Positions 1-19,657 of a DNA stretch of 25,855 nucleotides are shown here, piece after piece. Origin of the DNA: a virus (Duplodnaviria > Caudoviricetes); the IMG/VR virus record IMGVR_UViG_3300048598_000462, positions 1 to 25,855 of that record, one strand, 5' to 3'. The translations under genes were made by a program, and so were the position numbers. Positions within the stretch are counted from its first letter, which is position 1. The number at the start of each line of letters is the position of its first letter. The notes under the pieces are model-generated. The model did no database searches. It was not told where the DNA came from and saw only the letters and a list, made by a program, of their open reading frames with translations.

Positions 1-41
1 TCAAGGCTGAAACAGGGGTTCGATTCCCCTAGGGAGCGCCA
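1..41 (+). tRNA. 3' half of tRNA-Glu (5' part lies upstream of the window); integration target
   Basis: TCAAGGCTGAAACAGGGGTTCGATTCCCCTAGGGAGCGCCA contains the end of the anticodon arm, T-arm AGGGG-TTCGATT-CCCCT, acceptor 3' strand and CCA at 39-41. It resembles alphaproteobacterial tRNA-Glu. The anticodon (TTC or CTC) is cut by the window edge. Confidence 0.85.
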
Positions 42-1134
42 AGCTAGCCAGATTTGCCAATAGCTGCAACGTGTTAGAGTCAAGGTTGGCTATCGTTTTT
101 TGCGGAGTGTCTAACCGCGCAATCGCAGACTCGGCCAGTCGCGCTTGATCGACGGCGCGTGTGTATGTCTCGACCTCCTGCAGGTTCTTGTGTCCGGTGA
201 TGGCTTGGATTTGGTGGGGCGTACAGCCTGCCTCGGCGAGGCGACGGCACGCGGCATGACGCAATCCGTGCGGGCTTGAATCGGAAGGCAGGCCCGCTGC
301 GCGCGCAGCGTCACGCAACCAGTTCGTGAAGCCCTTGGCGCTTCGGTCCTTGCCCGTGATGGTGGCGAGGAAGGTTTTTCGGTCGCGTGGCACCAGATCG
401 ATGTGGTGCTGCAACTCGGCGTGGATCGGAATGCGCAGGTGCGTCTTGTGCTGTGACTTCACCGTAGTGATATGGATCGCGCCGTCCTTGATGTGCTTCC
501 ACCCGACGCGCACCACGTCTGAACGCCGTAGTCCGGTATAGAGCAATAGTTCAAGCGCAAGTCGGTACGTCGTACCTTCCTTCCATTTCGCGCGGTAGGC
601 CGTGATGTCGGCCTCGGTCCAACTGCGATAGCTCTTCTGATCGTACTTGACGCGCTTTGCCCGCTTGATCGGATTCTCGGCCGCAAGGCCCGCGCCAATG
701 GCGTATTCGAATACGCTGTTCAGGCGCTTTCGCAGGATGTTCGCGGCGGCGGGGGTCTTGGCCATCGAATCCATGATGGCATTGACGTGCCGCGTCTCAA
801 GGCTGGCGAGGGACTTCTCACCGTGCTCGTTGCGAAAATGCTCCAGAACGCGCCGGTAATTCATCTTGGATGAAGCCGACAGCCGCTTGTACTCGGCGCT
901 GGAATAATAGCCGGCGATGGCCGACGAGATGCTGCCCGCGGGATTGCGCGTGACAAGCACCTCGCGCGGCTGGTCGCTCACCACCGCGTTGTAGGCATCC
1001 CAAAACGCCTTGCTGCCGACAGGGCCGGGCAGCGCCATACGTTCCGTACCCGGCTTGCGCAGATAGATCCGCTCAATCCCGCGGCGATCAATGTACCTGT
1101 GAACCCACCGGGGTTTCTTCGTTTTGTCGCGCAT
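1..1134 (-). CDS. int: Tyrosine integrase (377 aa from ATG 1134); C-terminus runs through attL into the antisense of the tRNA
   Basis: Catalytic motifs YTGLRRSD (R), TVKS (K), HGLRH, TGH and ETY; N-terminal arm-binding-like region. The start at MRDKTKK is preferred over 1206. Confidence 0.93.
   Translation of the reverse strand: MRDKTKKPRWVHRYIDRRGIERIYLRKPGTERMALPGPVGSKAFWDAYNAVVSDQPREVLVTRNPAGSISSAIAGYYSSAEYKRLSASSKMNYRRVLEHFRNEHGEKSLASLETRHVNAIMDSMAKTPAAANILRKRLNSVFEYAIGAGLAAENPIKRAKRVKYDQKSYRSWTEADITAYRAKWKEGTTYRLALELLLYTGLRRSDVVRVGWKHIKDGAIHITTVKSQHKTHLRIPIHAELQHHIDLVPRDRKTFLATITGKDRSAKGFTNWLRDAARAAGLPSDSSPHGLRHAACRRLAEAGCTPHQIQAITGHKNLQEVETYTRAVDQARLAESAIARLDTPQKTIANLDSNTLQLLANLASLALPRGIEPLFQP
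27..42 (+). repeat. attL core, 16-bp direct repeat CCCTAGGGAGCGCCAA
   Basis: Identical to 19642..19657. It is the tRNA 3' end and lies within the 3' end of the integrase ORF. Confidence 0.9.
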
Positions 1135-1384
1135 TGAGGACACCGTCCCATGGATTGTGCGTTTGCGGCTCGGCCGGAATGTCGCCGAATAGCCGGTCAA
1201 GATCATGTCGATCCCAGATTACCACGCCAAGCATCTGCCGCGGTGGCGGAATGGCGCCCGCTTTGCGTTGAGCGTCGAAATGGCTGGGGCTGATTCCGAG
1301 ATACCTTGCCGCATCAACCCTACGCAGGCCGCGGGGGACAATGCCCCCGCGCGTATTGTCGTTGTGGTGTGTGAGGGAGGTCAT
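1088..1384 (-). CDS. xis: Excisionase / AlpA-like winged-HTH protein (98 aa)
   Basis: PRGLRRVDAARYLGISPSHFD...GAIPPP...VIWDRHDLDRLF; directly upstream of int; TGATG coupling to the upstream gene at 1384. Confidence 0.8.
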   Translation of the reverse strand: MTSLTHHNDNTRGGIVPRGLRRVDAARYLGISPSHFDAQRKAGAIPPPRQMLGVVIWDRHDLDRLFGDIPAEPQTHNPWDGVLNARQNEETPVGSQVH

Positions 1385-1983
1385 CAGTGCCCCCATACTG
1401 GCTGGCGAGAAGTACTAGGGACAACGCCATGCGCAGCCCTCATGAACTTTACGCCCTTCTTCAGCATTTGCTTTTGCCAAGCCCCTCGCCGCCAGTACGG
1501 CACACCGCGAAGTGACTCTGCCTCAGGCCAACATGTCTGCCAGTCTGTCACGGTCTCGCCGCTCTCTATGTCGAGGGCATCGACGATCCACTCCGGCTTG
1601 ATCCAGCCGAAATATACGTGCCACCTATCGGCCGCGTCGGTGCCGGACGTGCGGCGCGCCGACGATTTTAGGAATGCGATAGCTTGAGGTGTGACGTGAT
1701 CCGGTGCCCAATCGGCCCACCTCACTAGGCGTCCGTCGTCTGCGGGGACGTCAACGGTAAGACGGAAGCGTTGCTTGTCCAGAGCACTAGTGTCGATGCC
1801 GTGACCGCTAGGGTTCGGACTTGTAGTGAACCAGACACCGACAAGGCCAGCGGTACTAGTGGTGTCGAGCATGACATCACCGACCGTCAGGCCGTGCTTG
1901 GCGATACCGCGGAGGTATTCCCCAGCGGTGTAGTGGTAGAGCCGCACGCATGAAGGTGCAGGCATAGCAATATGTTCGGGCAT
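1384..1983 (-). CDS. Hypothetical protein with ADP-ribosyltransferase-like (H-Y-T / KptA-type) motifs
   Basis: LYHYT...I...GL...GVWFT and a late WHVYFGWIKPEWI segment resemble the ART-fold strand pattern; TGATG-coupled to xis. Confidence 0.55.
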   Translation of the reverse strand: MPEHIAMPAPSCVRLYHYTAGEYLRGIAKHGLTVGDVMLDTTSTAGLVGVWFTTSPNPSGHGIDTSALDKQRFRLTVDVPADDGRLVRWADWAPDHVTPQAIAFLKSSARRTSGTDAADRWHVYFGWIKPEWIVDALDIESGETVTDWQTCWPEAESLRGVPYWRRGAWQKQMLKKGVKFMRAAHGVVPSTSRQPVWGH

Positions 1984-2051
1984 GGGCGCGCCTCGCTAGA
2001 ATTGAATCCAGGTTGATTGCCCCCGTTAAGGCACGGGCGGCGCGCCACCAC

Positions 2052-2082
2052 TATATATACCGGATAACGCACCAAAGTCAAG
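2052..2082 (-). promoter_or_regulatory. Putative sigma70 promoter for the ART-like gene, xis and int
   Basis: Minus strand CTTGAC-N17-TATATA, close to the rhizobial CTTGAC-N17-CTATAT consensus, about 70 nt upstream of ATG 1983. Confidence 0.55.
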
Positions 2083-2090
2083 ATGTAGTA

Positions 2091-2432
2091 TCAGACTGCC
2101 GGCTGTTGCCACTCGATTCCCCGTTTAAGTACGGGGCCGAGCGCATCCCGAAGCCGCAGCGAGTCCGCGATCTCCATCCATGGCCCATAAAGGGACGTGA
2201 GTGCGCCGACCACATCAGGCGTCGGTCCCGCGTGCGCCAACTGCTGAGTAATGGTGAGTATCTGGGCAGTAAGTCCGCCCTGGACTTCATCAATCCACTT
2301 CTTAGCTTCGGTGCGGCGGAATCTCGGCTGGCAACTGAAGGCAGCGATAATGTTGTCGAGGGTCTGTAGGACGTCGTTAATCGCAAGAAGGTCGTCAGTA
2401 TCGTAAGCGTACTCGTGCGGTTGATACGTCAT
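2091..2432 (-). CDS. Hypothetical protein (113 aa)
   Basis: ATGA-coupled to the upstream ORF; plausible helical protein; no motif recognised. Confidence 0.65.
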   Translation of the reverse strand: MTYQPHEYAYDTDDLLAINDVLQTLDNIIAAFSCQPRFRRTEAKKWIDEVQGGLTAQILTITQQLAHAGPTPDVVGALTSLYGPWMEIADSLRLRDALGPVLKRGIEWQQPAV

Positions 2433-2740
2433 GCTGCACCCCCAAGACGCTGATGGTCTGCACGCAGGCCGGCGCGCATGGCGTCGGCAAATTCATCGCA
2501 AGGGCCAACGTCGACATAGTCCCGAATGAAGAACAGGGCCTTGGCAGCAATCTCCTGCGCTGTGCGGGCGGGAGCCTTGGCAATGTCGAAGCGAACGGCG
2601 CCGGCCGTCAGGCAGATCTGGTCGATTGTGGCGCCCGAGAATGCGCCGACGTCGACGAACTCAGTGAGTCGATTATGGAGAGAGATGAGGTCGGAAACAG
2701 ATTCGGGTGGTGATTCTGTGATATTGATTTGGGTAGCCAT
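2429..2740 (-). CDS. Hypothetical prophage protein (103 aa)
   Basis: Good SD (TAGGAG) before ATG; PARTAQEIAAKA segment of a kind common in small alphaproteobacterial prophage proteins. Confidence 0.7.
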   Translation of the reverse strand: MATQINITESPPESVSDLISLHNRLTEFVDVGAFSGATIDQICLTAGAVRFDIAKAPARTAQEIAAKALFFIRDYVDVGPCDEFADAMRAGLRADHQRLGGAA

Positions 2741-2810
2741 CGATCGCTCCTAAACAGCGTTTGTGGTTAGGGCCGGTGCGAAAGTGGAGGCTTTTGCCCG
2801 GCCTGATTAT

Positions 2811-2856
2811 TTGTTACACCGGAATCATGGCTAAGTCAATATCGGTGACACCGAAA
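2811..2856 (-). promoter_or_regulatory. Putative leftward promoter overlapped by operator-like repeats
   Basis: Minus strand TTGACT(2839-2834)-N17-TAACAA. Repeats TTACACCGGAA (2814-2824) and TGACACCGAAA (2846-2856). Palindrome TCGGTG-A-CACCGA (2842-2854). Confidence 0.5.
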
Positions 2857-3018
2857 AAGAAGAGGGGCCGCCCCGCAACCGGGCGAGACCCTCACGTGAC
2901 TGCGCGTCTGCCGCAGGAATTGATAGACGCTATCGAGATATGGGCAGAGCGGAACGATGTTAGTCGGTCTGGCGCTATCCGTTTACTTATCGAGGCTGGA
3001 TTGAAGGGAAAGAAGTGA
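2827..3018 (+). CDS. Ribbon-helix-helix (CopG/Arc-like) regulator, 63 aa
   Basis: KKRGRPATG followed by VTARLPQELIDAIEIWAERNDVSRSGAIRLLIEAGL (beta-alpha-alpha pattern). Confidence 0.8.
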   Translation: MAKSISVTPKKKRGRPATGRDPHVTARLPQELIDAIEIWAERNDVSRSGAIRLLIEAGLKGKK

Positions 3019-3299
3019 TGCGAGGCACAGCAACCATCATCGTAAACGGCGTTGAAAAGGGCGAAGCAGAATTCACGACGGTCGGCTTGGAGAACATGAG
3101 ACGAGGCCAGCCCAGCGGCGAACTGTACTGCAAACCACAATGGTTCATCAAAGATGGCGGCTTTGGCCTTCATGATGCAGCGCAGCTTAAACTTGCATCG
3201 GGTGAGACCGTGAATATCACCGTCATGCCATCGTTCGAGTCTCCGCTGCCATTCTCGTTTGCCGATCAGAACATTCCTCCCGCCCTGCTTAAAGTCTAA
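3015..3299 (+). CDS. Hypothetical protein (about 94 aa, beta-rich)
   Basis: Start overlaps the RHH stop (GTGATG); no motif recognised. Confidence 0.6.
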   Translation: MMRGTATIIVNGVEKGEAEFTTVGLENMRRGQPSGELYCKPQWFIKDGGFGLHDAAQLKLASGETVNITVMPSFESPLPFSFADQNIPPALLKV

Positions 3300-3716: not shown

Positions 3717-4070
3717 TCACTGTTGAAACACCGCATCGAACAACGCCGGACTCATCGGACGCGCGCTCACCTTATCGCCGTTCTTCGGTCCAGCGGCCAG
3801 CGTCAGGTACTCACGATCCAGCGCGCGAATGATGTCAGCCTCCCAAGGCCGGATGGCCTCACCGCTGATGCGCGCCAGCGCGAGCATGTCGGTGTATGTA
3901 ATGGGGCAGGGGCCGAACGACGCGCCGCGCTGGTCGTTTAGCTTCAGAAACAATCCCCATACGCGAAGGCCGGCATAGGGAATCTCTGGACCGTCAAGAC
4001 GGCCTGGATTTCCGATGTGCCAGCGCAGAACGGATAGAAGATCCTCGGTCAGAACTTCTGTGTCAATCAT
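3717..4070 (-). CDS. Tail assembly chaperone-like protein (gpT-type C-terminal part), 117 aa
   Basis: WGLFLKLNDQR...PCPITYTDMLA...PWEADIIRALDREYL resembles the second ORF of siphovirus G/GT chaperone pairs; TAATG coupling at 4070. Confidence 0.6.
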   Translation of the reverse strand: MIDTEVLTEDLLSVLRWHIGNPGRLDGPEIPYAGLRVWGLFLKLNDQRGASFGPCPITYTDMLALARISGEAIRPWEADIIRALDREYLTLAAGPKNGDKVSARPMSPALFDAVFQQ

Positions 4071-4663
4071 TAGACCTGGCCTGCCTTGAAGCTGATGGTT
4101 GTGTACAGTCCCGAAATCCGCTGCGTGATGGATTGCGGCATGAGCGCCATGCGGCACGACGGCTTCTTAAGCGTCACTGGTTCGCCTTCCGTTGTGCCGG
4201 GCCAAGGTGGTGGTCGCACCGCAAACTCGCCCGTCTCGCCGTCGCTGTCGGCTGTAGCCGCCTCGACAACTTGGTGCAGGACGCGGCGGCCTTGCACCTC
4301 CAACGACAAGTAATCACCCGGAGATAGCTGAAATCCGTTGGGCAAGTTCGCCAGCGCCATCTTCGTGCCGCTCGCCGACAACACCTCGGCTTCGTCGTCG
4401 AAATCGCCATCGGCATGCGCGCGCGGGTAGGGACGCCGCAAGTCGTACGCTTCAAATTCGCCGATCACACCGTTAAGGGCGTTCAGGCTGGCCTCAAACG
4501 CAAGGGCGTCGTCCGCGTTCATGGGCGCCGTGGTGTATTCCGCGGACCATAGGGCGGGGCCGAAGTCCTTGCCGTAAGTTGTGCCGCTGGCTGTGCGCGA
4601 CAGCTCCTGGCGCGAGATCAATTGGAAAACCTGATCCGCGTATCTGACTGAATCAAAGATCAA
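4070..4663 (-). CDS. Distal tail (Dit)-like minor tail protein
   Basis: Directly after the tape measure; 197 aa; SRTASG...GPALWSAEY...L.G....F..YD.RRPYP pattern typical of post-TMP proteins. Confidence 0.65.
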   Translation of the reverse strand: MIFDSVRYADQVFQLISRQELSRTASGTTYGKDFGPALWSAEYTTAPMNADDALAFEASLNALNGVIGEFEAYDLRRPYPRAHADGDFDDEAEVLSASGTKMALANLPNGFQLSPGDYLSLEVQGRRVLHQVVEAATADSDGETGEFAVRPPPWPGTTEGEPVTLKKPSCRMALMPQSITQRISGLYTTISFKAGQV

Positions 4664-6855
4664 GCTAACTGCCTCCTCTGTTTTGCATTCCGCACCGCTG
4701 CAACCACCTTGCTATTGAACTCCGCATCGCGCTTCGCGAGTTCGGCGCGCATCGTGTTGACGGTGGAGTCGTCGGCATTGCCGTTGATATTGATCGTTGT
4801 GGATCCGCCTGTGATGCTTATCGGCGAACAGCCCATAGGAACCGGAACGGAAAGCGCCGCGCCCGCGCGCATGGCTTCCACGGCGCCAACGCCGCCGGCG
4901 CGCTTAACGTCGGCTTGGCTCCAAACGACCTCGCCTTTGTGAACCACACCGGCCGGTTGATTTTTGCTGCCTGGCCCGGTGTATCCGCCTTCGTCGAAGC
5001 CGAACAGCTTGCCGATACCGCCGAGCAAGCCACCGCCTAGCCCACCGCCAGCGCTCGAGAACGCTGAATCCCACAGCTTGTTGGCCGCCATTTCCATCAG
5101 CTTGTCGGCAATCTTACCGAGAGCGTTTACGCCGGCTTGCTTGAAGGCGTCCCATGCCGACATGCCGTTGCGCAGGTTCTGGCCGAACTCGACAAACAGG
5201 CCGCGGTTGACGTCGCGTCCAATGTTGCCCAGCTCGCGCATGCCATTCGCGGCACGCATGCCCGCGGCTTCAACGCTCGATAGGGCAGTGGCAACATCGG
5301 GATAGATGCCCCTCAGTTGCGAGGCAATGGCAACGTCTTCCTGCGAAAGGAAGGCCGTCTGCTTATCGAACTTGATCTGCGCGGCAACCTTGGCCTTTTC
5401 CATTGCAACGGCGGCGCCGCCATACGCTGCGGCAACTTCGTCGATCACCTTGCGCTGTTCGGCTGTGACAACGTTTTCGCCAAGGCCCGCGGCCGCGTTC
5501 GCCTGCTTAGCAACTGTCTCCAGCTGCGCCGCGATCTTCGCCTTGTCGCGCGCCTCGGTACCGAGATCGATTGCCGCAGCCTCGGCCTGCAATGCCGCGG
5601 TGCGCTTCTCAATCGTGCCGACATTCGTGTCGAAGCGATCGACGTCGGATCCGCCGGTTGGCTTTGGCGTCGGCCTATCGCCCGTGCCAGTCTGCGCCGG
5701 CATCTTCGGATAGTTGTTGGGCTGGCGTTCCAGGTCATCAATCTGCCCTTGGATTTCATCGCGTTTCTTGCGATTCATTTCCGCGGTAATGACGTCGGAC
5801 GGAACGCGCAAACCCGTGTCAATTCCAAACACGCTGATCTTGTTGCCGTTCTTGATCGCGTCGTCGAGTTCGTCCCGCTGCGTCTTCAAGCGAGACGCCT
5901 GATTCCCGAGAATACCGAACTTGTTGGCAAGCTCGACGGCCTGCGCGATGTATCCGACGATCTCGCCCCAAAGATTTTTGATATTCAGAATGACGCTGGA
6001 GAGGTCATCGAATGACGGTTTCAACGAGCGGGATAGCCGCTCCTCTGACGTCTTAAGCTGGTCGTCGACCTCTTTCGCGCGGGCGACGAGGGCGGACGAA
6101 TAGATTCCATCGTCCGAATTCGCCATCTGCTGCATGGTCGACAGGATGGCTTCCGCGGACGTGCGGCCCTGCCGAATGCGATCGACGAATGCCGAGCCAA
6201 ACATGCGCTCGCCCAGATCCAGTGCAGCCGCCCGCTGCCCGATCTGCTCGAGCTGCACCATCGCCTTGAGGACAGCCTGAACTTTAGCTTCCTGCGAGTC
6301 GGCCTCACGGAACAGCACCAGGCCTTCAAGCTGCTGACCAGAGCTACGCGCCAGAGTCTCGTTGTAAATGCGAAGCGCGCGCTCGACGTCTGTAATGCGG
6401 TCCTTTCCGGTGTCCCACGCGGCAAGATCGATCGGCGACTTGTCTTTCGTCGCGTTGAAGGCATGCTGTAACGCACCTTCCAGGTCGCCGACGTCGACCT
6501 GTAGCTTGCGGGCCTCCGCGCTGAAGGACTGGAAGAAGCCAGCTGACACGCCGACGTTCTGGGATTTGTTCTGTAGCTCGACCATATCGGAAAGCTGATC
6601 CCGCGCAGCACCGATAGCATCGCCCATGAGCTTCGCCGCGCCGACGACAAGAGCGATACGGCCGGCAAGTTTTAACGCGCCTGATGCGGCACCACTGAAT
6701 GCAGCGGTTGCGGCGCTTCCAGCCAGCTCCTTATTCACGTCGAGAAAGTGTTGCGCAACCTTACGCGCCGCCGTCTTCGCAAGCGACGACGTTTCGTTCA
6801 TCTGCTTCCTAAAGTCGTCAAGATTGGCGCCGATGCGCCAGGATAGTGCCGGCAT
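4660..6855 (-). CDS. Tail tape measure protein (731 aa)
   Basis: Long Ala/Gln-rich helical protein with the lambda-like C-terminal motif FDEGGYTGPGSKNQPAGVVHKGEVV. Confidence 0.9.
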   Translation of the reverse strand: MPALSWRIGANLDDFRKQMNETSSLAKTAARKVAQHFLDVNKELAGSAATAAFSGAASGALKLAGRIALVVGAAKLMGDAIGAARDQLSDMVELQNKSQNVGVSAGFFQSFSAEARKLQVDVGDLEGALQHAFNATKDKSPIDLAAWDTGKDRITDVERALRIYNETLARSSGQQLEGLVLFREADSQEAKVQAVLKAMVQLEQIGQRAAALDLGERMFGSAFVDRIRQGRTSAEAILSTMQQMANSDDGIYSSALVARAKEVDDQLKTSEERLSRSLKPSFDDLSSVILNIKNLWGEIVGYIAQAVELANKFGILGNQASRLKTQRDELDDAIKNGNKISVFGIDTGLRVPSDVITAEMNRKKRDEIQGQIDDLERQPNNYPKMPAQTGTGDRPTPKPTGGSDVDRFDTNVGTIEKRTAALQAEAAAIDLGTEARDKAKIAAQLETVAKQANAAAGLGENVVTAEQRKVIDEVAAAYGGAAVAMEKAKVAAQIKFDKQTAFLSQEDVAIASQLRGIYPDVATALSSVEAAGMRAANGMRELGNIGRDVNRGLFVEFGQNLRNGMSAWDAFKQAGVNALGKIADKLMEMAANKLWDSAFSSAGGGLGGGLLGGIGKLFGFDEGGYTGPGSKNQPAGVVHKGEVVWSQADVKRAGGVGAVEAMRAGAALSVPVPMGCSPISITGGSTTININGNADDSTVNTMRAELAKRDAEFNSKVVAAVRNAKQRRQLA

Positions 6856-7181
6856 CAGGCCGCGTCCTCATCATCGAAGAAATATGTCGACAGCACAGCG
6901 AACGCGGTATTCGCGCTCGGTCCCATAGCTTGGCCGTGGACATGCTCGGCAATCACTGCGTCGGCTTCCGCCTCCGTCATTCCGCCACCGATCAAGCCCA
7001 GCTTCAGGACGCGCTCGACGTCATCCGGCGAAAACACGGACTCGTCAAATCGCTTCATTGCAGCGGCAGGCGTGCTGCCATACTGGCCCGGAAACGGGTG
7101 CTGGGCTTCCGCCAAGAGCCATCGAATGCGAGGGGCGCGCAGATCGAAGTTATGAGTTCCGCCAGTCCATGTAATGTTCAT
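6855..7181 (-). CDS. Tail assembly chaperone, GTA-gp10-like
   Basis: ITWTGGTHNFDL...DDVERVLKLGLIGGGMTEAEA is the pattern of GTA-gp10-type chaperones; immediately before the TMP. Confidence 0.75.
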   Translation of the reverse strand: MNITWTGGTHNFDLRAPRIRWLLAEAQHPFPGQYGSTPAAAMKRFDESVFSPDDVERVLKLGLIGGGMTEAEADAVIAEHVHGQAMGPSANTAFAVLSTYFFDDEDAA

Positions 7182-7636
7182 TCTGAAAGTGCCTTCTCGA
7201 CTGCCGCCGCAATGTTGGCGTTGATTTCGTCTTCCATCGCGCGCACCGTTGGATAAAAGAACGGCTCGGCCGGATGGTCTGTCGCGCCAAATTCAATGGC
7301 CATGCTGTAATCGTAGGAAACGCCGGCGCCATCAGCCTGTTTGGCAATGCCTTGGTTGCTGCGCCCGTCGATAACGACTTCGCGCTCATAGCCCGTATCG
7401 CGGTCATAGAACTTCGTCGTCGCCGCGCCGCCCGCCTCGACATAAAGCGTGAGATCATTTCGCGTACGGCGCACCCTGACGGAATCGCGGAGCGCGCCCG
7501 TCTTCACTGGGGCGGCGGCCTTTACCGCATTGGCCAGCCTGTCAGCCTCGGCGTGGATGGCAGTAGCCAATTTCCGCTTCACCCTAAATTCTAAGTCCGC
7601 GATCTGCCGGTCTATTTCGTCGTCAGAGCCAGCCAT
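7178..7636 (-). CDS. HK97 gp10-like neck/tail component (152 aa from ATG 7636)
   Basis: APVKTGALRDSV...IEFGATDHPAEPFFYP motif. Confidence 0.85.
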   Translation of the reverse strand: MAGSDDEIDRQIADLEFRVKRKLATAIHAEADRLANAVKAAAPVKTGALRDSVRVRRTRNDLTLYVEAGGAATTKFYDRDTGYEREVVIDGRSNQGIAKQADGAGVSYDYSMAIEFGATDHPAEPFFYPTVRAMEDEINANIAAAVEKALSE

Positions 7637-9257
7637 CGTCGTCGCTCCAATCGTCGCGGTCGTAGAAAGACTGTTCCTGGTGCGCAGCCGCGCGCGATAC
7701 CGCCATCCATGAAGCAGCCGCACCATCGATGCGATCGGTGCTCTTGCCCTTGTGCATCACGCGGTTGCCTGCGCTGTCGGTGTGGATTGCGACGTTACCG
7801 AAACACCACCGCAGGACAGGGTTGCCGGCGTGAACTAGCTTTTCCTCGACGATCACCCGTTCAAGTTCGTTGAGGGCAGGGGACTGAGTCACCCAGCCCT
7901 GCCGCAGCGTCGCGGTGGGAAAGCCGTCGTCGGTGAGCGGTCCCATCACGTTCGAAGCGTAGGCAGGATCGAAGCAGATTTCCCGGACGTCGAACCGTTC
8001 GCACAGGTCGCGAATGTGTCGCTCGATGGCACGCGGATCGATTGCATTGCCCGGCGTCGGCGTGATGAAGCCGGCCTCGGCCCATGAAACGTAGTTCACG
8101 CCGTCCCGATCACCGCGCTTGCGTAGGTCGTGCTCCGGGCAGAAGAACTGCGGCAGGAGAATGTACTCGTCCTCACGTCGGACGCAGGCGACAACGGCGG
8201 CAAGGTCCGTGGTCGTGGCCATGTCACAGCCAATCCAACACGGCAGGCCGTCGATATCGTCGGGGATCGGACGATTGCCCTTGTCGTAAATGGCCATCTC
8301 GACGAAGGGCGAAACAGAATGATCGAGCCAAACGTTTAGATGGTACTGGCGAAACGTGTCGCGCGCGGTCGGACTGGCCTCGGCTTCTTTAGCAAGCTGT
8401 CGCAGGCCTTCGATATCCTGATATCCGAGGGCCAGGCCGGGATTGGCTCGATACCAGTTCGCTTCGTCCTGCCAATCCGCATCAGGGTCGGTTTCGAACA
8501 GGATGGGCAACATAGACGGATCGTCGATCTCGCCGCGCGCTACCTTGCGGGCATGGTCTACAATTTCAAAGGCGATGTTGTCGTTACCCCGGCCGGACGT
8601 CGTGGCAACAATCAGTAGCGAACCCTGCGTCTTCGGAAGGGATGACTTGATGGCCTTCCACAGTTCGGCGTTCTTCCAAACATGAAGTTCGTCGCACAAC
8701 GCCATGGCGATCGTGCGGCCGTGAGCAGGCGCGCCTTCGCCGCTGATCGCCTCCAGAAACGAACCATCCTTATTGAAGACGATCTTCTTTACGCTGTTAT
8801 GCGCGTCATAGATGCGAGTGGCCGCGATCAATCGCTTGTCTTCACGGATGATAGACGCGGCCTCCGCGAAGCCGAGACCGGCTTGCGCGCGGTCAGATGC
8901 GGCAAATACAGCTTCACCACGCGGCCGGCGCTCCGGTCCGATGGTGTGGATGAGATTTAACGCTGCGGAGAATGAAGTTTTTCGATTGCCTCTGGGTAGC
9001 AGAAGCACCACCGTCTTTACGATGCGCTGTCCGTTGGCATGCCTTGGCCCGTAAATGCGCCGGACGATACGCTCCTGCCATGGATCAAGCTGGAACGCGC
9101 GCTTCGGTGCCGAAGATTTCGGATGCTTCAGCCGGCGCAGGAACGTGACCGCGCGCTCGCCGTATCCGAGAGGATCATCGATCGGGGAGTCATCGAAAAG
9201 CCAATGCGGATAGGTGTCAGACGTCAAGCGGGGAATCTTCGTCGTCGTCATTGTCAT
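7623..9257 (-). CDS. terL: Terminase large subunit
   Basis: LDPWQ adenine-binding motif, Walker A variant PRGNRKT, Walker B LCDELH, ATT motif III, nuclease GCDMATTTD and RIDGAAA. Confidence 0.95.
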   Translation of the reverse strand: MTMTTTKIPRLTSDTYPHWLFDDSPIDDPLGYGERAVTFLRRLKHPKSSAPKRAFQLDPWQERIVRRIYGPRHANGQRIVKTVVLLLPRGNRKTSFSAALNLIHTIGPERRPRGEAVFAASDRAQAGLGFAEAASIIREDKRLIAATRIYDAHNSVKKIVFNKDGSFLEAISGEGAPAHGRTIAMALCDELHVWKNAELWKAIKSSLPKTQGSLLIVATTSGRGNDNIAFEIVDHARKVARGEIDDPSMLPILFETDPDADWQDEANWYRANPGLALGYQDIEGLRQLAKEAEASPTARDTFRQYHLNVWLDHSVSPFVEMAIYDKGNRPIPDDIDGLPCWIGCDMATTTDLAAVVACVRREDEYILLPQFFCPEHDLRKRGDRDGVNYVSWAEAGFITPTPGNAIDPRAIERHIRDLCERFDVREICFDPAYASNVMGPLTDDGFPTATLRQGWVTQSPALNELERVIVEEKLVHAGNPVLRWCFGNVAIHTDSAGNRVMHKGKSTDRIDGAAASWMAVSRAAAHQEQSFYDRDDWSDDDGWL

Positions 9258-9591
9258 TGCGCACGGAAGGCCGGCTCCGCGAGACCGGAGTCAGGCCAAG
9301 CTCAGCGGCGAGCTGGCGGGCCGTTGCCATTGCTTTGTCTTGGAGACGGCATAGGATCGGATCGACGCCGTTCTTTTGAATGGCCCGCTCTAACTCGCGC
9401 ACGCGGCCGGTAGCGAGACAGTAGTTTTCTAACGCGCCCATGTCGGCTTCTGTGAGAATGCGCCGCTCGACAAGCGTCGGGATTACGCGCGACCACTCGG
9501 CGCGACCATCCTTTGACAGCCAGGAAGGCGGGGCAGGCGCTTTCTTCACCGCGTTTGCCGCGGTGCGCATTTGCGGTTTGGTGCCCTTCAT
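9217..9591 (-). CDS. terS: Terminase small subunit (P27 family)
   Basis: PPSWLS..GRAEWSR...LENYC...ELGLTPVSRSR. Confidence 0.92.
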   Translation of the reverse strand: MKGTKPQMRTAANAVKKAPAPPSWLSKDGRAEWSRVIPTLVERRILTEADMGALENYCLATGRVRELERAIQKNGVDPILCRLQDKAMATARQLAAELGLTPVSRSRPSVRNDNDDDEDSPLDV

Positions 9592-10327: not shown

Positions 10328-10634
10328 TGGCCGGAACCTCGCCAAACGACCAGTCGCGATAATCGTTGATGATGTCGACCAGCCCGAACGGCAGAGACTG
10401 CGCGTTGATACCGACGAGGCTGGCTTCGCGATTCTCGTACCAGTGCGCTGTCAACAGCGCGACTCCGTGAACCAGGGCAGGCGGTACGGTGTCGGGGTAG
10501 CGCTCTTCAATCTTGTACCCTAGCCAGTCCTCAACGTGGTTCTGCGCAGCAGCGATGAGGCGCGCAATCAGGTCGTCGTCGGTGTCGAGAGTCTGCGCGA
10601 GGTGAGCCTTTGCCTCTTCAAGCGTGAGAATCAT
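10320..10634 (-). CDS. Head-tail connector (HK97 gp6-like), 104 aa
   Basis: LTLEEAKAHL...DDDLIARLIAAA...LLTAHWYENRE. Confidence 0.92.
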   Translation of the reverse strand: MILTLEEAKAHLAQTLDTDDDLIARLIAAAQNHVEDWLGYKIEERYPDTVPPALVHGVALLTAHWYENREASLVGINAQSLPFGLVDIINDYRDWSFGEVPASA

Positions 10635-10639
10635 CAAAA

Positions 10640-10720
10640 CTCCAATTATCTGCTCTCTTGCGCCGAGGGAAATCACCGGTCTTTCGCAAAAATCTCAAAC
10701 TTTTTGCCCACTCCCCGTGG
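10640..10720 (-). other. Candidate cos/packaging site downstream of the HNH gene
   Basis: Rare non-coding gap in a tightly coupled operon, directly after HNH; G-run then AAAAAGTTT...GACCGG...GCGCAAGA, like the post-HNH region of HK97-type cos phages. Position inferred. Confidence 0.4.
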
Positions 10721-11060
10721 GTGTGCGACCGAATCCACCTTCGCGCGCTATATTTTGCCTGTTGTTGCAGGCGATGCAGCTTGGCTTCCAATTACTTCGT
10801 ATGAGTCTGAGGTCGGGCGCTTGCTTGATGCTAATGCGATGAGCAACCAACACAGCAGGAGCACCGCATGCACAGCGTTCATTGCCCGGCTCATTCAGGA
10901 AGTCCCTTGATAAGCGCTGCCACTCACTGTCGTAGCCGCGTGCTGCACTGCTGCCTCGCGCTTTGTCATGCTCACGATCACGCTGCTTTTGGCAAACGCA
11001 ACGCTCACCATGAGGCACGCGCTGCCCACATGAACATATGCGGGCAGCGCGCTTAGACAT
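10695..11060 (-). CDS. HNH (HNN variant) endonuclease, terminase cofactor
   Basis: RGSSAARGYDSEW...CACG...VAH...NWKPSCIACNN; N-terminal Cys cluster. Confidence 0.85.
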   Translation of the reverse strand: MSKRAARICSCGQRVPHGERCVCQKQRDREHDKARGSSAARGYDSEWQRLSRDFLNEPGNERCACGAPAVLVAHRISIKQAPDLRLIRSNWKPSCIACNNRQNIAREGGFGRTPTGSGQKV

Positions 11061-11554
11061 TAGTCTTCGTCGCCAGTAGTCGCAGCGACCGGCACGATGT
11101 TCGAGTTGATCTCAATCGTAGCGTTGAGTTTCTGTACCGTGTTGGCCTCGCCACCTGCTTCCTGCGCAGAAGTAACAAGGCCGATAAAGTAGCGCATGGA
11201 TGGCGTTGCACCGACGCCAGCCGGTTTGTCGTTCAACTCGACCTTGAATGCGTAGTTGTTCGAGGTCTTCTCGGCGGCGATCAGGGCAATCTGACCGGCA
11301 TCGGCAGCGTTGATGGCAAACACGTTTTGCATCTGACCAGCATTGCGCGTGCCCTTTTGCTTTACGTCTCGGCCGCGATTGATGAGCGACGTGGTGATCA
11401 CCTGAGCGGTGTCACCGAAGCTGCCCATTTGCTCCCAACCGTCAATTTCCACCCACGTCTGCGACGTGAAATCGGCCTCGACGAAGTCGGTGGCCTTGTC
11501 CGAAAGGACGCCGCCGATGTACAGCTTGCAGCCTGCTACGGGGTAAAGAGACAT
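11060..11554 (-). CDS. Tail tube (major tail) protein, 164 aa
   Basis: GSFGDTAQVIT...KQKGTRNAG...DAGQIALIAA...YAFKVELND...YFIGLV...IEINS is typical of alphaproteobacterial siphovirus tail tubes; SD AGGAGG. Confidence 0.85.
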   Translation of the reverse strand: MSLYPVAGCKLYIGGVLSDKATDFVEADFTSQTWVEIDGWEQMGSFGDTAQVITTSLINRGRDVKQKGTRNAGQMQNVFAINAADAGQIALIAAEKTSNNYAFKVELNDKPAGVGATPSMRYFIGLVTSAQEAGGEANTVQKLNATIEINSNIVPVAATTGDED

Positions 11555-11566
11555 TTGGCCCTCCTG

Positions 11567-11956
11567 TCAGGCTGCGACCGGCGCAAGGGCCGGGCTTCCG
11601 AGAATGAACACCGCACCGGCGGCGATGGACGTACCCGATTGCTTGGTGATCACGGCGCGGACATAGCGCTTTTTGCCGATGTAGCCCTGCCGATAGACAG
11701 ATGATGCTGCAAGCGCGGCCGGTAGCGAGCCGATCAGGTTGTCGGCGGCGACGTCGGTGAAGTCGCCGTCAGTGGTTGTGTCGCTTTCCTGCATTCGGAT
11801 GTCGTAGAGGCCATCCGATGCAATCGCGCCGGTGTTGACAACCATCAGGGCGGATTTGAAGCCTTGCGTATCAACAGCGCTGCCCTTGAGCGTCGCCGTC
11901 TGCACCGCAGGCACGAGGGAGGCGACAACTTTGTTGTCGGTATAGGTATCAAACAT
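11567..11956 (-). CDS. Putative head decoration protein (129 aa from ATG 11956)
   Basis: Directly after the MCP; beta-rich VDTQGF...QESD...FTDVA...GYIGKKRYVR; SD AAGGA. Function inferred from position. Confidence 0.6.
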   Translation of the reverse strand: MFDTYTDNKVVASLVPAVQTATLKGSAVDTQGFKSALMVVNTGAIASDGLYDIRMQESDTTTDGDFTDVAADNLIGSLPAALAASSVYRQGYIGKKRYVRAVITKQSGTSIAAGAVFILGSPALAPVAA

Positions 11957-11981
11957 TCTGAATCCTTGAATTGAGAAAGGG

Positions 11982-12005
11982 TGGGTGATCGGCAACGACC
12001 ACCCA
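11982..12005 (-). terminator. Stem-loop after the major capsid gene (attenuator or mRNA stabiliser)
   Basis: TGGGTGGTC-GTTGCC-GATCACCCA, 9-bp stem with one G-U pair; only a weak pyrimidine tail follows. Confidence 0.4.
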
Positions 12006-12012
12006 TGCCGCG

Positions 12013-13227
12013 TTAGCTGGCAGCGACCTTGAGGAACTTCACCGCGTTGAAATCGCCGGCAGCGCCGCCGACACGCTTGTAGGTGTCGAAAAGGATGCGG
12101 CCCTTTTGCGTGACCTCGTCACGGGTGATCCGGATGCCGGAGCGATCGACCACGACATAAGCCTGACGGTGATCGCCAAAGCTGATCGGCAACGTACCGG
12201 CGCCGATGTCATCATAGCCGTCATCGATGGTTACCGGATAACCGAGCAAAGGATGCTCGACGCCCTCGATCAGGTTGCCGGTGGGCGCCCACAGATAGCG
12301 TCCATTGGCATCAACGATCGTGCGCAGCCGCACCGCTGTGTTGCTGTTCATGACGAACCGCGCATTTGCCTTGTACGGCGTGCGGACCGCAGCAACCAGT
12401 TTCACCAGTGCGGTGACAAGGTTGGCATCGGTCGGTGCCGAGGCGTGACCGGCCGGCACATATTGATACTTGCCCCAAGCCCGGACGAAGTCCTTCTCGT
12501 TGGTCACGTCATAAGTGAGGAAGCCTTTCGGCTTGCCCATGACGCCGTCACCGCGAAGGAACGCTTCGCCTTCGGTCTCGGCGAAGTCGTGAGTGGCGTT
12601 ATTGATCAGCCAGGATGCGATATCGACCTGTACATCATCGAGAAGCTGGCGCGTCGCAGCCGGCGCGGCATAGAGTTCGGCCACGCCGTAGGATTGCTTG
12701 ATGAGTTCCGGTCGAGCCGTGTCCTGCGGGCGGTCATCGCGCTCGGCGACCCACTGAGCGCCGCGCTTGCCCATGGAGTAGAAGCGTTCATACGTAGAGG
12801 TGCCGATCGACACGACTTCCGCCAGACTGCGCATCGGCGAAATGTCGGTCATCAGGGCGCGGATGCTAAGGTCGATGGAGGGCAAAACCATCCAGCCGCC
12901 ATCCACCGCATTGTCGGAAGCCGCAGCCTTCACCTCGACATCGGAACCGGTGCGGATGAAAGAGCCGAGGGCTTTCTTCTCGATGTCGGCCTGCTCGTCG
13001 CCGGCCTTGGTGCCTGCCGGGCGATTGGCCTTCTTCTCGATTTCGGCGAGGCGGGTTTCGAGCGCCTTGACGTCGACAACGTCGTCCTTCTTTTCGGGCT
13101 CGCTCTTGGTTTCGAGCTTGCTTAGGCGGGCGTCGACGGTCTTGGTGAAATCGTCCAAAGCCTTCTGCACGATGCCAACGGGATCGTCGGCCTCGCTCTT
13201 AAATTCAATGGGAGAAACGTGTTTCAA
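12013..13227 (-). CDS. Major capsid protein, HK97 fold (404 aa from TTG 13227)
   Basis: N-terminal coiled-coil delta domain, DGGWMV, EGEAFLRGDG..KPKG, DANGRYLW, LLGYPV, FGD, KRVGG; SD AAGGA before TTG. Confidence 0.95.
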   Translation of the reverse strand: MKHVSPIEFKSEADDPVGIVQKALDDFTKTVDARLSKLETKSEPEKKDDVVDVKALETRLAEIEKKANRPAGTKAGDEQADIEKKALGSFIRTGSDVEVKAAASDNAVDGGWMVLPSIDLSIRALMTDISPMRSLAEVVSIGTSTYERFYSMGKRGAQWVAERDDRPQDTARPELIKQSYGVAELYAAPAATRQLLDDVQVDIASWLINNATHDFAETEGEAFLRGDGVMGKPKGFLTYDVTNEKDFVRAWGKYQYVPAGHASAPTDANLVTALVKLVAAVRTPYKANARFVMNSNTAVRLRTIVDANGRYLWAPTGNLIEGVEHPLLGYPVTIDDGYDDIGAGTLPISFGDHRQAYVVVDRSGIRITRDEVTQKGRILFDTYKRVGGAAGDFNAVKFLKVAAS

Positions 13228-13237
13228 AGTTAGTCCT

Positions 13238-13735
13238 TTAGGAAAGCGCCGCAGTGGCGCGTTGGATTGCAGCCGCAAGCGTGAGTGCTTCAACGGCAGA
13301 CTTTGCGCTGGTCACCCGAGCGCCGGGATGCATGGGGATCGTCACCAAGGACGCCTCCAGCAATTCCAATGATTTGATCGTGCGGCCACCGCCTGCGCGG
13401 TTACTGGCCTTCTTCGTGATAAAGCCGATCGAGATGCCCCGAACTGCGCCTGAGCGCACAAGAGCGCGTACCTCACGGGCGCGTGCAACATCATCAACTA
13501 GAAGATGGCCGGCAAGATGTAGTCCATCCGACTTCTCCGTTGCGATGTCCCAAGTACCGATCGGATCATTCATGTCGTGGCCGAACAGCATCGGAATCGG
13601 CAGCGACGCCTTGGCGAACGCACCTTTCTCGATGACGTCGCCGACGCGGTCAGGCTCGTTGAATTTCCAGGCCACGCCACTGATGGCTCCGGCATCGTCG
13701 GCGATGACCTTGGTTTCGATATAGAGGCGATCCAT
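13238..13735 (-). CDS. HK97-family prohead protease (165 aa from ATG 13735)
   Basis: DRVGDVIEKGAF, MLFGHD, GISIGF, LLEASLVTIPM. Confidence 0.93.
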   Translation of the reverse strand: MDRLYIETKVIADDAGAISGVAWKFNEPDRVGDVIEKGAFAKASLPIPMLFGHDMNDPIGTWDIATEKSDGLHLAGHLLVDDVARAREVRALVRSGAVRGISIGFITKKASNRAGGGRTIKSLELLEASLVTIPMHPGARVTSAKSAVEALTLAAAIQRATAALS

Positions 13736-13896
13736 CAAGCGGGCCTCGACAACACGGCGATGTCGAATTCCTCTTTCTGGAATTGCTCGCCATCGAACCA
13801 AACACATTCAACGCGCTCATCGCGCAGAACGCGCGTCACCGTCATCCACGGGCCACCCGTGGCGAGCCGGACGACGTCAGACTTGGAAAGCTTCAT
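13735..13896 (-). CDS. YodC/DUF2158-like small protein (53 aa); not in the ORF track
   Basis: Translated by hand: MKLSKSDVVRLATGGPWMTVTRVLRDERVECVWFDGEQFQKEEFDIAVLSRPA*. Coupled on both sides (ATGA and TGATG). Confidence 0.8.
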   Translation of the reverse strand: MKLSKSDVVRLATGGPWMTVTRVLRDERVECVWFDGEQFQKEEFDIAVLSRPA

Positions 13897-14282
13897 AGTG
13901 TCCTCATGTAGTAAACATCGCGCTTCTGGCTGAACGCTTCGACCTGCTCACGAATGAACCGGGCCGACGTCAGAAGCCGCACGACGTTTGTGAAGTTGAA
14001 GTCCACCGACTTGCCATCGCGCTTGACGTTCCAGCCGATGACAAGACGCGCGAGTTGCTCGACTTCCATCCGCTCTAGTTCTTCGGCGGGCGGACGATGG
14101 CGGAAGGACATCAGTTCGTCGGAATACTGCAGCCGCGCGCGGCGTGCGGTCTTGCTGTCCGGACCGGCGATGGTCAGGACGATGTCTGTCATCTTTTCCC
14201 CGGTGACGGGGTGGACGATCGTTAGTTCGGCACCACGGTCCTGTGATTCGACGAGGTTGTCGACGTGCGCGAGGTCGTTCAC
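13893..14282 (-). CDS. Tail assembly chaperone-like protein (gpG-type), located in the head cluster
   Basis: GAELTIVHPVTGE...LTIAGPDS...LARLVIGWN...FIREQV resembles siphovirus tail chaperones; GTGA overlap with the portal stop. Confidence 0.6.
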   Translation of the reverse strand: MNDLAHVDNLVESQDRGAELTIVHPVTGEKMTDIVLTIAGPDSKTARRARLQYSDELMSFRHRPPAEELERMEVEQLARLVIGWNVKRDGKSVDFNFTNVVRLLTSARFIREQVEAFSQKRDVYYMRTL

Positions 14283-15442
14283 GCCGCGGCCTCTTGCGGC
14301 TTGTTGTCGTTCGCAGGCTTATCGACGGTGATGTTGCGGTTTCCGTACTTGTCGCCACCGTCGTAGGGCGGAAGCCCAAGCCACTCGCGACCGGTGTTCG
14401 GGTTGATGGTCTCGCTCGCAATGAGAGAGTTAATCGCCGTTGCGCGTTCCGTTAGACTGGCGCGGGTCAGGTCGTCACGGTCGAATTTGAACCGCAAACC
14501 GGAGGCGCGTTCCTCGTCAGAGAGCAGGGCGCGATCGAGGGCGGACTCCAAAGCTTTCAACCACGGCTCCACCGCATACTGCAAGAATTCGAGCTGTTTC
14601 TGAGAAGCATTCGCGTAACTCGACTTCGTGAGGTCGCCCAACATCGCCGGACTGATATTGAACGCACGGCCGATTTCCTCGATCTGGAAACGCCGCATTT
14701 CGAGGAACTGGGCGTCGACCGACGAAAGCTGCATGGCCTTGAACGTCGAGCCATCAAACAGGATGGCGGTCTTCCCGGCGTTCTCGGCACCCTCATGCGC
14801 GGCGCGCCAGCCGGCCTTCATCGCCTTCCACGACTTTTCGCTGATGCCCTTCGGCACTTCGATCACGCCGCCGGGACGTGCGCCGTTCTTAAATAGCCGC
14901 GATGCATGGGCGGTCATCACAAGTGACGCGCCGATCGCCTCGCGTGCCAACGAGACAGGGCACTTCGCGAAGGGGCCGCGAAGATGCACGATGTCCGACG
15001 CCGCGACAGGTCGGCCGGAAACGCGATACAGCAACTCGCGCGTCTCTTCCTCTTGAAAGCCGATCGTGCCGCGTCGATAATTGATGATCTCGCGGACTTC
15101 GCCGTTAACACGGTTGACCCATGCCAGCGCGCCCGCGTCATGCAGCAACGCCTCGGCGACCATGTCCCGGATGAACTCGTAACCGGAAGTCCAGGCATTT
15201 ACTTGGCCGCGGAGCAGGTCGAGCGCGGGGTGATTGTCGACGCGTTCCTCTTCGCGGGTGATATTGACATCGAGCGCCGCGCACGATTCTGAAATGAGTT
15301 TAACACCGGCCTGAACCGCCGTTTCGCAAAGGGCGGTCGCTGCCGTGACGCCAGCGCCGGGCGTCGAGCCGGTGAACGCCTCAAGGATTGCGGCGTCATC
15401 GTCCGGGATCGGCTCGATTGCTTTGGTGGTAAACCAACCCAT
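14279..15442 (-). CDS. HK97-family portal protein (387 aa)
   Basis: DIVHLRG, FKNGARPGG, ENAGKTAIL, DAQFLEMRRFQIEEIGRAFNISP, NTGREWLGLPP. Confidence 0.95.
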   Translation of the reverse strand: MGWFTTKAIEPIPDDDAAILEAFTGSTPGAGVTAATALCETAVQAGVKLISESCAALDVNITREEERVDNHPALDLLRGQVNAWTSGYEFIRDMVAEALLHDAGALAWVNRVNGEVREIINYRRGTIGFQEEETRELLYRVSGRPVAASDIVHLRGPFAKCPVSLAREAIGASLVMTAHASRLFKNGARPGGVIEVPKGISEKSWKAMKAGWRAAHEGAENAGKTAILFDGSTFKAMQLSSVDAQFLEMRRFQIEEIGRAFNISPAMLGDLTKSSYANASQKQLEFLQYAVEPWLKALESALDRALLSDEERASGLRFKFDRDDLTRASLTERATAINSLIASETINPNTGREWLGLPPYDGGDKYGNRNITVDKPANDNKPQEAAA

Positions 15443-17842: not shown

Positions 17843-19273
17843 TCAGGCCGCGTCGTCTTCCATCCAATCAGGCCAATCGTCCGGCTGCGGTGGTAGTGGC
17901 GCGGGTTCATCCTCGAATAGCTCGGGATGCGCGGCGTCCCACTCGCGGCGGCCTGCCTCGGCACGCCACTGCGCTTCCTTCCGGCGCTGCCATTCGTTTA
18001 GGTGCGGTGACAACGGCGGCAGGGCATCGATGCGCGCCTTGATTGCCGCCGCCTCGGATTCCGTCACGGGCTTGGACTCCGGCTCTGGCATCGGCTCTGG
18101 CTCGGGCTTCACCGGCAATGGCGTGTCGTCGTCTGGCCGTACCTCTGGGGGTTCAAATCCGTCGCCTGTGATGACGATGGTTCGGCCGTGTAGTTCGCTG
18201 CTGTCATCTATCTGCGCGAGGCCCGCAGCGGCAACGAGCGCTGCGAGCTGACGCTGGCCGGCTTCCTGCTTCTCGCTGTCGGGGTGTTCTATCACGATGA
18301 CGTACTCGCCAGCCTTGTCGGTGGTGAAGCGCAACTTAGTCACGTCGCCCGCCGTCACCACGTCGGCCGCGGTAATCCTGGCCGGCCCACCGGCCCGGCT
18401 CGGCTTGCGTGGTTTGGGGTTCTGATCGGAAACTCCAGCCTTGGCCTTCGTCTTGACCCGGCGCTCGACCTTGTTGAAGCCGCGGGGGGCGGGCTTGAGC
18501 CACATTTCATCCTTGAGCCAGCGCACCGCCGACATGCGAGGGGCGTTTGGATCATTCTGCTGCGCCCATGCTTGATGCCAATCCGCCGCGGCGTCGATCA
18601 CCATGGCGCGATCTGTATCCGGCGGCAGGGCATCCCACGCGCGTTTGATTGCCGCCCTGGCTGGCTTGCTCATGTCGGCGGGGCAATAGGCGGTGAGAAA
18701 CGCTTGTAACCCTTCCACCGCCGTCTCGCCCGCAGCGGGGGCCGCCAGGCCACCCGCTGCGGGCGACGCCGTAGGCGGGCGGTGTCCATCTCTATCTATC
18801 AGGAGACCGGCTGTAAGCCGGTCCTGTAGATAGGAGGGGGTGACATCTGTGTCACCGTATTCGGGAGATAAGGTGACACTTGGGTCCATTTCGTGGACCT
18901 GAATGTCATCCTTTAATACGGTGACAGTTGAGTCACCCTTTTGCGGAACTAGGCTGAAATTGGGTCGATACACCGTCGCGTGCCCGCGCGTCCCGGCGCG
19001 GACGACGTCGACGAATCCGAGGTGGGTGAGACGTTGTCGCGATCGGCCCACGGTGCGGTCGCACAGGCCGGTGAGCGCACAAATCTCCTCGTCGGAAACG
19101 AAACCGTTCCCGTATTGGCCGTGGTACCGCTGGATGATCTCGGCAAAAACGGCAAGGTCGGCCTTCTTGGTGTCAGGATGGTGCGCGGCAAGACGCAGCA
19201 ACTTGAATTGAACCCAGGCCTCGACATCATACGGCCGGGGCTTCCGCTTGGAGTAGGGGTTAGACTCGCTCAT
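17843..19273 (-). CDS. Replication initiator (N-terminal wHTH, iteron linker, replisome-organiser-like domain, DUF669-like domain)
   Basis: SDEEICALTGLCDRTVGRSRQRLTHLGFV wHTH; FLTAY...KRAWDAL...SAVRWLKDEMW; EAGQRQLAALVAAAG...DDSSELHG. Confidence 0.75.
   Translation of the reverse strand: MSESNPYSKRKPRPYDVEAWVQFKLLRLAAHHPDTKKADLAVFAEIIQRYHGQYGNGFVSDEEICALTGLCDRTVGRSRQRLTHLGFVDVVRAGTRGHATVYRPNFSLVPQKGDSTVTVLKDDIQVHEMDPSVTLSPEYGDTDVTPSYLQDRLTAGLLIDRDGHRPPTASPAAGGLAAPAAGETAVEGLQAFLTAYCPADMSKPARAAIKRAWDALPPDTDRAMVIDAAADWHQAWAQQNDPNAPRMSAVRWLKDEMWLKPAPRGFNKVERRVKTKAKAGVSDQNPKPRKPSRAGGPARITAADVVTAGDVTKLRFTTDKAGEYVIVIEHPDSEKQEAGQRQLAALVAAAGLAQIDDSSELHGRTIVITGDGFEPPEVRPDDDTPLPVKPEPEPMPEPESKPVTESEAAAIKARIDALPPLSPHLNEWQRRKEAQWRAEAGRREWDAAHPELFEDEPAPLPPQPDDWPDWMEDDAA
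18839..18937. repeat. Four 18-bp palindromic iteron-like units within rep (candidate origin)
   Basis: GGTGACA-TCTG-TGTCACC (18839), GGTGACA-CTTG-GGTCCAT (18872), GTGGACC-TGAA-TGTCATC (18893), GGTGACA-GTTG-AGTCACC (18920). Confidence 0.7.
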
Positions 19274-19481
19274 GCCGACACCCTCCGGCTGCCACCGCAG
19301 CGCGCGCCAGTTCGTCGGCCGTGGTGCGGTCGAACGTCAGGCTGTGCCCGAACACCCGCATGGAGCCATCCGGCTTGCGGATCAGGCTGACGTCCACGGC
19401 GCGCACGCCTGGGGCAATCTCGATATCGAGCGCGGCAATGCGCCGCCCGCCCGAACATGGGCGGACTTGAAGTATTTTCAT
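19260..19481 (-). CDS. Small beta-rich protein, SpoVG-like nucleic-acid-binding fold (tentative)
   Basis: IAALDIEIAPGVRAVDVSLIRKPDGSMRVF; SD AAGGA; overlaps the rep start. Confidence 0.6.
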   Translation of the reverse strand: MKILQVRPCSGGRRIAALDIEIAPGVRAVDVSLIRKPDGSMRVFGHSLTFDRTTADELARAAVAAGGCRHERV

Positions 19482-19609
19482 GTTGAGGTATCCTTGGGTT
19501 TAAATGCGTCGCTGCTCGGCTGTTCCGAGTCTTCTCTCGCCGTAGCCACTTCGTTTTCTAAAACGACGCTATGCGACGCATTGGAAATCAGCGACGCCAG
19601 CACTTTCAA

Positions 19610-19622
19610 CAACGCATTGATA
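19610..19622 (-). promoter_or_regulatory. IHF consensus site in the att arm
   Basis: Minus strand TATCAA-TGCG-TTG matches WATCAANNNNTTR, about 20 bp from the attR core. Confidence 0.55.
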
Positions 19623-19641
19623 TCAATTGATTGCGCGCCAG

Positions 19642-19657
19642 CCCTAGGGAGCGCCAA
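19642..19657 (+). repeat. attR core of element 1 (displaced tRNA-Glu 3' end) and left boundary of element 2
   Basis: CCCTAGGGAGCGCCAA, identical to 27..42. Confidence 0.9.

Follow-up and report, generated by a model that had tools for sequence, protein, structure and literature searches.

The att core, the integrase frame and the circle junction

The stretch of DNA analyzed here, IMG/VR virus record IMGVR_UViG_3300048598_000462 (Caudoviricetes; 25,855 nt in full and referred to below as the window), carries an integrated element of 19,615 bp that is delimited by two copies of a 16-bp attachment (att) core, CCCTAGGGAGCGCCAA. The window contains this core in exactly two places, 27-42 (attL) and 19642-19657 (attR). 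The attL copy closes the 3′ half of a tRNA-Glu gene (1-42, plus strand), which ARAGORN does not report because the window begins inside it; the assignment comes from the sequence and from a 91%-identical relative (L001), in which a tRNA-Glu(TTC) occupies the site matching the attL of the window. The same copy lies within the reading frame of a tyrosine integrase gene (int; 1-1134, minus strand, ATG at 1134; Pfam PF00589, E 7.8e-22, and a structure model). This frame crosses the core into the antisense strand of the tRNA gene, from which the last 8 of the 377 residues of the integrated form are read. When we joined the two ends in silico, the integrase (Int) grew to 423 aa: its frame acquired 54 new codons, stayed open between 19642 and 19478 and reached a TGA that overlapped the ATG (19481) of a gene for a 73-aa protein (19260-19481, minus strand). 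An earlier note on this DNA had placed the core inside int, had assigned the eight residues to the tRNA antisense and had joined the ends by hand into the same 54-aa tail and the same overlap, and all of this was reproduced.

The P arm of att (19478-19641, minus strand), known from the in-silico joining as the Int tail of the circle and kept in length in a relative, contains an exact match (19610-19622, minus strand) to the consensus of integration host factor (IHF). In the window alone, the open arm and the overlap are modest evidence: 9.4% of shuffled 160-nt arms are stop-free in the Int frame, about 3% with the right register, and the TGA is nearly automatic because the homologs of the 73-aa protein have lysine or arginine at residue 2 (22 of 22). 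The 73-aa gene is conserved, with these 22 homologs, has its own AAGGA ribosome site and was modelled with a predicted local distance difference test score (pLDDT) of 89. Its fold is possibly SpoVG-like, a weak likeness (TM 0.52-0.55, E 0.06-0.07, not significant); a fold search returned no match at E 0.001 and the atlas no family. Distant look-alikes of the protein are placed after the arm in two relatives (L294 and G728).

Behind attR, on the strand of int, the 73-aa gene is followed by a gene for a 476-aa protein (17843-19273, minus strand) and then by particle genes. The 476-aa protein is weakly assigned as replication-initiator-like (Rep-like; phrog_270, E 1.2e-4; HTH_36, E 0.002, below the cut-off), with HTH_36 look-alikes at 0.90, and neither rep nor the 73-aa gene gave matches when searched in viral contigs. 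Since all these genes share the strand of int, they continue the xis-int unit on the circle. At the other end of the element, int is preceded by an excisionase-like helix-turn-helix gene (xis; 1088-1387, minus strand; phrog_66, E 8.5e-5; HTH_17 weak), listed from an ATG at 1396 and with an alternative ATG at 1387 that overlaps the stop of the upstream gene, and by three unknown genes (103, 113 and 199 aa; 1384-2740, minus strand) without family matches. Divergent from this unit is a ribbon-helix-helix (RHH) repressor-like gene (2827-3018, plus strand; Pfam RHH_1, 23.7 bits with a cut-off of 20.5; phrog_4738, E 2.5e-8). Start-first calling of open reading frames (ORFs) had overlooked it, as had the earlier note, and the element is therefore not wholly one-stranded. 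Among 125 loci searched, the RHH homolog was on the strand opposite int in all six matches. A 93-aa minus-strand ORF (2892-3173) is probably just the antisense of this gene.

A sigma-70-like match lies upstream of the xis-int unit at 2082-2055 (one seen, 0.5 expected), and no LexA or CtrA pattern was found in the element. A palindrome-like motif around CCGTTAAG/CCGTTTAAG has three occurrences, at 2022-2137 and 4470 of the window, and is a possible operator.

A reading frame across att in relatives

Relatives were drawn from viral contigs, metagenome contigs and about 2,000 genome searches. The region of the catalytic tyrosine of Int was present in 316 of 325 sequences, and 187 of these also had a tRNA 3′ end behind it, which gave 125 non-redundant attL ends; attR was in the sequence examined for 41 of them (the complete elements) and not for the other 84. 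An attR was accepted as a core copy of at least 13 nt beginning at the tRNA end, and 146 nearest-copy repeats of 12-13 nt that started elsewhere were excluded. Frames were counted from a default frame, N followed by the TG of the CCA complement, which equals the Int frame of the window.

At attL, 79 of the 125 ends have an ATG within 10 codons in the default frame that stays open as far as the core. With codon 0 excluded, 39 ends have such an ATG in the default frame as compared to 9 and 15 in the other two, and for ATGs with a ribosome-site match the numbers are 36 vs. 2 and 9. Shuffling gave a mean of 17.2 and a maximum of 31 (1000 shuffles), and among the controls such an ATG was present in 2 of 41 chromosomal flanks of attR and in 3 of 21 trailers of other tRNAs. 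An A before the core, which turns the CCA complement into ATG, was not clearly enriched (56/125 vs. 14/41 and 7/21). Int stops before the core in 91 of the 125 relatives, and in 22 of these such an ATG open to the core lies within -4 to +5 nt of the Int stop.

At attR, 33 of the 41 complete elements keep the default frame open over a minimum of 40 codons, against 4 and 8 for the other frames, and the median open lengths are 63 vs. 15 and 18 codons. It ends in a strict overlap on the start of a gene of at least 50 aa in 14 elements; the other frames do so in 7 and 4, and three of those 7 are stops at codon 1. In four elements (G013, L269, L276 and G371) the default frame is itself a primase, large unknown, HTH_36 or HNH gene. 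The first large gene after attR, scored in 40 elements, is primase/helicase-like in 18 and HTH_36 in 4, with another match in 5 and no match in 13.

The two ends, which lie 6.5-19.6 kb apart, also co-vary. In the non-default frames, attR is open in 8 of 12 cases with an attL ATG and in 4 of 70 without (p 5.6e-6), and after thinning to 25 elements with less than 60% Int identity the counts are 4 of 6 vs. 2 of 44 (p 9e-4). Random pairing of ends predicts 14.2 matches where 17 were observed (permutation p 0.023), and in a quick tree of Int the shifted frames appear at about four separate places. In L248 and L242, where like arms flank the core, start, open frame and overlap are found in one piece; these records are classed as linear and may be circles or tandem copies. 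Substitutions between related arm ORFs are spread nearly flat over the codon positions (10/11/17, 8/4/8 and 9/11/14), and openness therefore matters more than the peptide, except in one small helical family (G050, G194, L256). The arm ORFs of these three and of L248 encode a conserved helical protein of small size that starts at attL and overlaps the att arm with its N-terminus.

Judged from these sequences, the conserved feature is a predicted reading frame across att, with its start at one end of the integrated element and its continuation at the other. In most relatives the frame begins with a separate short ORF or at the own start of the Rep gene, while the clade of the window uses an in-frame fusion to Int. 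Within this clade, the close relatives L006-L008 end before the far end. A relative contig that covers 19435-19657 has 37 differences in 223 nt without a gap, keeps the exact arm length and is stop-free in its readable stretches. Codon 0 is TTG in the window and ATG in four of the seven other near relatives listed, so that the Int fusion may be accompanied by an internal start.

The non-tRNA tails of L155, L136 and L241 were considered as circle forms and excluded from the attP of the clade: the motifs differ between the two arms, and we read them as tandem-island junctions. Such apparent tandem junctions (L155:343, L136, L241:6942) join different island families; they would form hybrid att-spanning frames and might activate the replication genes of the neighboring island.

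Excision and the expression of the replication genes

In the element of the window, att cuts between int and rep and splits a frame that in relatives is conserved and co-varies between the two ends. This split, on balance, probably makes the replication and particle genes depend on excision, through transcription together with translational coupling. A transcript under the control of the divergent RHH repressor would run through xis and int and, in the integrated state, end antisense to the tRNA; on the circle it would continue across attP. Ribosomes translating Int would stay on the 160-nt arm, terminate on the ATG of the 73-aa gene and reinitiate at this codon and then on rep, which would couple translation and shield the arm from polarity, a process in which Rho has its role. 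Chromosomal read-through into attR would meet no good start. The window element and most complete relatives thus likely switch on replication only after excision. The earlier note had proposed recombination itself as the genetic switch, and the joining of the rep operon to the xis-int unit is supported, by gene order and by the family-wide frame across att, while two Int isoforms as the point of the arrangement are not supported.

Alternatively, the two forms of Int, with 423 aa on the circle and 377 aa in the integrated state, might differ in activity, stability or direction. Read-through to att is indeed kept across the clade and occurs at several tRNA targets, with Int crossing into the core in 34 of 125 ends, and in the accessible part of the work on the phage Mx8 a tail swap can change activity (PMC6070905). 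Read-through of the tRNA typifies the closest homologs, and the 34 crossings are spread over all three frames. However, Int stops before the core in the other 91 relatives. In the seven complete Int-fused elements, the circle form stays open from the core for 59 (window), 26, 25, 11, 7, 7 and 6 codons, and these tails share neither length nor sequence; five of them stop 6-25 codons beyond the core without a coupled gene, and only in the window and L305 does the frame run to the start of a downstream gene. The Int model has its final confident helix at 318-341, where the fold ends, and residues 365-377 have pLDDT below 50, which places the swapped residues outside the folded domain. The rule for ssrA-like tags is a C-terminal AA, and neither Int tail has this terminus. 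The data do not support a conserved second isoform, the sequence of the tail probably does not matter, and an isoform switch is an improbable account of the locus; the tail swap would rather be a side effect within excision-coupled expression. The earlier note had suggested looking in homologs for an open frame and ATGA overlap across attP; the frame is conserved, and an overlap fed by Int is seen in the window and L305. In a sister group of short Ints (L029, L034, L039, L135 and L139) the C-terminus is GAA, which resembles a C-terminal AA degradation signal, and in a 75%-identical relative (L095:10898) a frameshifted int halts before the core.

Two further explanations concern the arm itself. 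Excision might join the operon at the level of transcription only, the open frame being a relic of an ancestral att-spanning gene that ribosomes cross without effect. The AAGGA site of the 73-aa gene, the even spread of arm substitutions over codon positions and three relatives that look intact without an open Int-fed frame (L294, G728, L022) are all in line with this. Transcription alone does not require, however, that starts at one end co-vary with open frames at the other, 6-20 kb away. The diverged relative contig described above keeps a gap-free arm of exact length, stop-free as far as seen, and we consider joining by transcription only rather unlikely. The open frame could also be a chance by-product of att-arm DNA, with rep transcribed independently of excision from a promoter in the arm. 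The chance level of about 3% in a single element speaks for this, as do IHF and arm sites at fixed distances, which in many relatives close the other two frames near codons 13-15 and account for part of the frame bias. The bias remains beyond the first IHF site, where codons 21-55 are stop-free in 28 of 41 default frames vs. 14 and 10 (p 0.002 and 1e-4), although further motifs may contribute there, and neither the enrichment of start codons at attL nor the co-variation fits with chance. A consensus scan found no promoter match in the P arm of the window, and loose matches were found in the arms of 1 of 41 relatives; arms and upstream regions are not distinct in these scans once length is allowed for (1/41 in 300 nt, 12/41 in 1500 nt). 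We regard this explanation as quite improbable.

Several observations weigh against excision-dependent coupling of translation as proposed above. The strict overlap is restricted to the 14 of 41 default frames (17 with direct fusions), and 8 of the 33 open default frames have neither an ATG nor Int as a feeder. The frame of L294, the nearest complete Int-fused relative and in the same frame as the window, stops 7 codons past the core, and those of G728 and L022 stop 6-7 codons beyond it. A weak promoter match at 19745-19716 points from the neighbor into attR, and the own ribosome site of the 73-aa gene may make coupling unnecessary. No complete member of the clade of the window was obtained, and no end-to-end joint of the window junction was present among the joints listed for contigs of six runs that contain only relatives (share ≤0.17).

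Integrated elements must silence their replication genes, since otherwise the chromosome would be re-replicated, and the known routes are repressors and, in Tn916, separation from the promoter combined with antitermination. Placing start codon and gene body at opposite ends would be a further solution and one that can be read from sequence. We tentatively propose, as a possibility for tRNA islands and satellites that form a widespread family in alphaproteobacteria, that recombination acts as a translation switch in which the start of the first replication cistron lies at attL and its body at attR. The start signal would be a stand-alone ATG, an ORF coupled to the stop of Int, or Int, and that end of the element would require neither a terminator nor a repressor. 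If so, replication proteins could not be made from the integrated state, and many such islands would be mis-annotated, with a first gene that has no true start in the genome and with tRNA-antisense Int tails that are by-products. A literature search gave no match for such a split-start design; most subscription journals were outside its coverage, so that absence from print is not shown. The accessible parts of PMC5861418, PMC10111431 and PMC13626063 contain nothing on a split start.

Particle genes, the neighboring island and known systems

Between the regulatory and replication genes, the element encodes an HK97-like head, terminase, connectors, a major tail protein, a tape measure protein (731 aa), a distal tail protein and chaperones (3717-15442, minus strand). 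Protein family searches recognized no tail-tip, fiber or lysis genes in it, and its gene content resembles that of a satellite with an incomplete tail; dependence on a helper phage is inferred from the missing tail-tip and lysis genes. L007 and L008 are, like the window element, of about 19 kb with head, tail tube, tape measure and distal tail protein and no recognized tail tip, fiber or lysis genes, and such elements are possibly a type of satellite that borrows the tail tip only. Part of the same head and tail gene set is found in three elements of 17-18 kb (G369, L297 and L298). Right behind attR and outside this element, a second integrase gene (19701-21329, plus strand; PF00589, E 1.4e-7; DUF6538 weak) belongs to a neighboring island (19701-25855) with a DUF6538-type integrase, an Abi_C protein, a C5 methylase, a 404-aa unknown gene and a resolvase.

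Satellites of the cf-PICI type are defined by having no tail genes. The window element has its own capsid, portal, protease, terminase and connectors, as do cf-PICIs, but also a major tail protein, tape measure and distal tail protein. Like these satellites, it is small and integrated, encodes its own head and packaging proteins and has no recognized lysis or tail-tip genes, and it shares the tape measure with the EPIPs, satellites for which the accessible part of PMC12822802 describes this gene. In contrast to the cf-PICIs and EPIPs as described there, it has a major tail protein, chaperones, a distal tail protein, an RHH regulator instead of AlpA or Stl, and an att site between int and rep.

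The earlier note had drawn a parallel to integration-dependent immunity in mycobacteriophages. In phage BPs, as far as the accessible text of PMC4557955 goes, recombination likewise rewrites a coding sequence and acts as a switch, but there attP lies inside the repressor and an ssrA-like tag is removed, whereas the repressor-like gene of the window lies 2.8 kb from att and is intact in both states. With att outside the repressor gene and no ssrA-like tag on the tails, Mx8 and Tn916 are the closer parallels. In Mx8, attP lies in int and changes its 3′ end (accessible parts of PMC6070905 and PMC4383910). Integrase tail swapping itself is thus already known: Mx8 and Mx9 share with the window a tyrosine integrase, a core in the 3′ coding region of int and a new C-terminus upon integration. 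In the Mx8 sources, as far as available, the swap alters the activity of Int, whereas here the tail of the free form is unconserved and outside the fold and relatives mostly use a separate ORF.

The genes of Tn916 are silent in the integrated state because they are separated from their promoter (accessible part of PMC11658703). There, replication and transfer genes lie apart from the promoter-xis-int end when integrated and are joined to it across the circle junction, and in the window as well as in relatives the gene order puts the replication genes behind xis-int on the circle alone. Tn916 relies on a terminator together with an RNA antiterminator, whereas the window has no terminator-like site in 19260-19900 and no run of at least five T in the junction. 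What is conserved here instead, in tRNA-targeting phage-like islands, is a frame that appears to have its start and its body at opposite ends.
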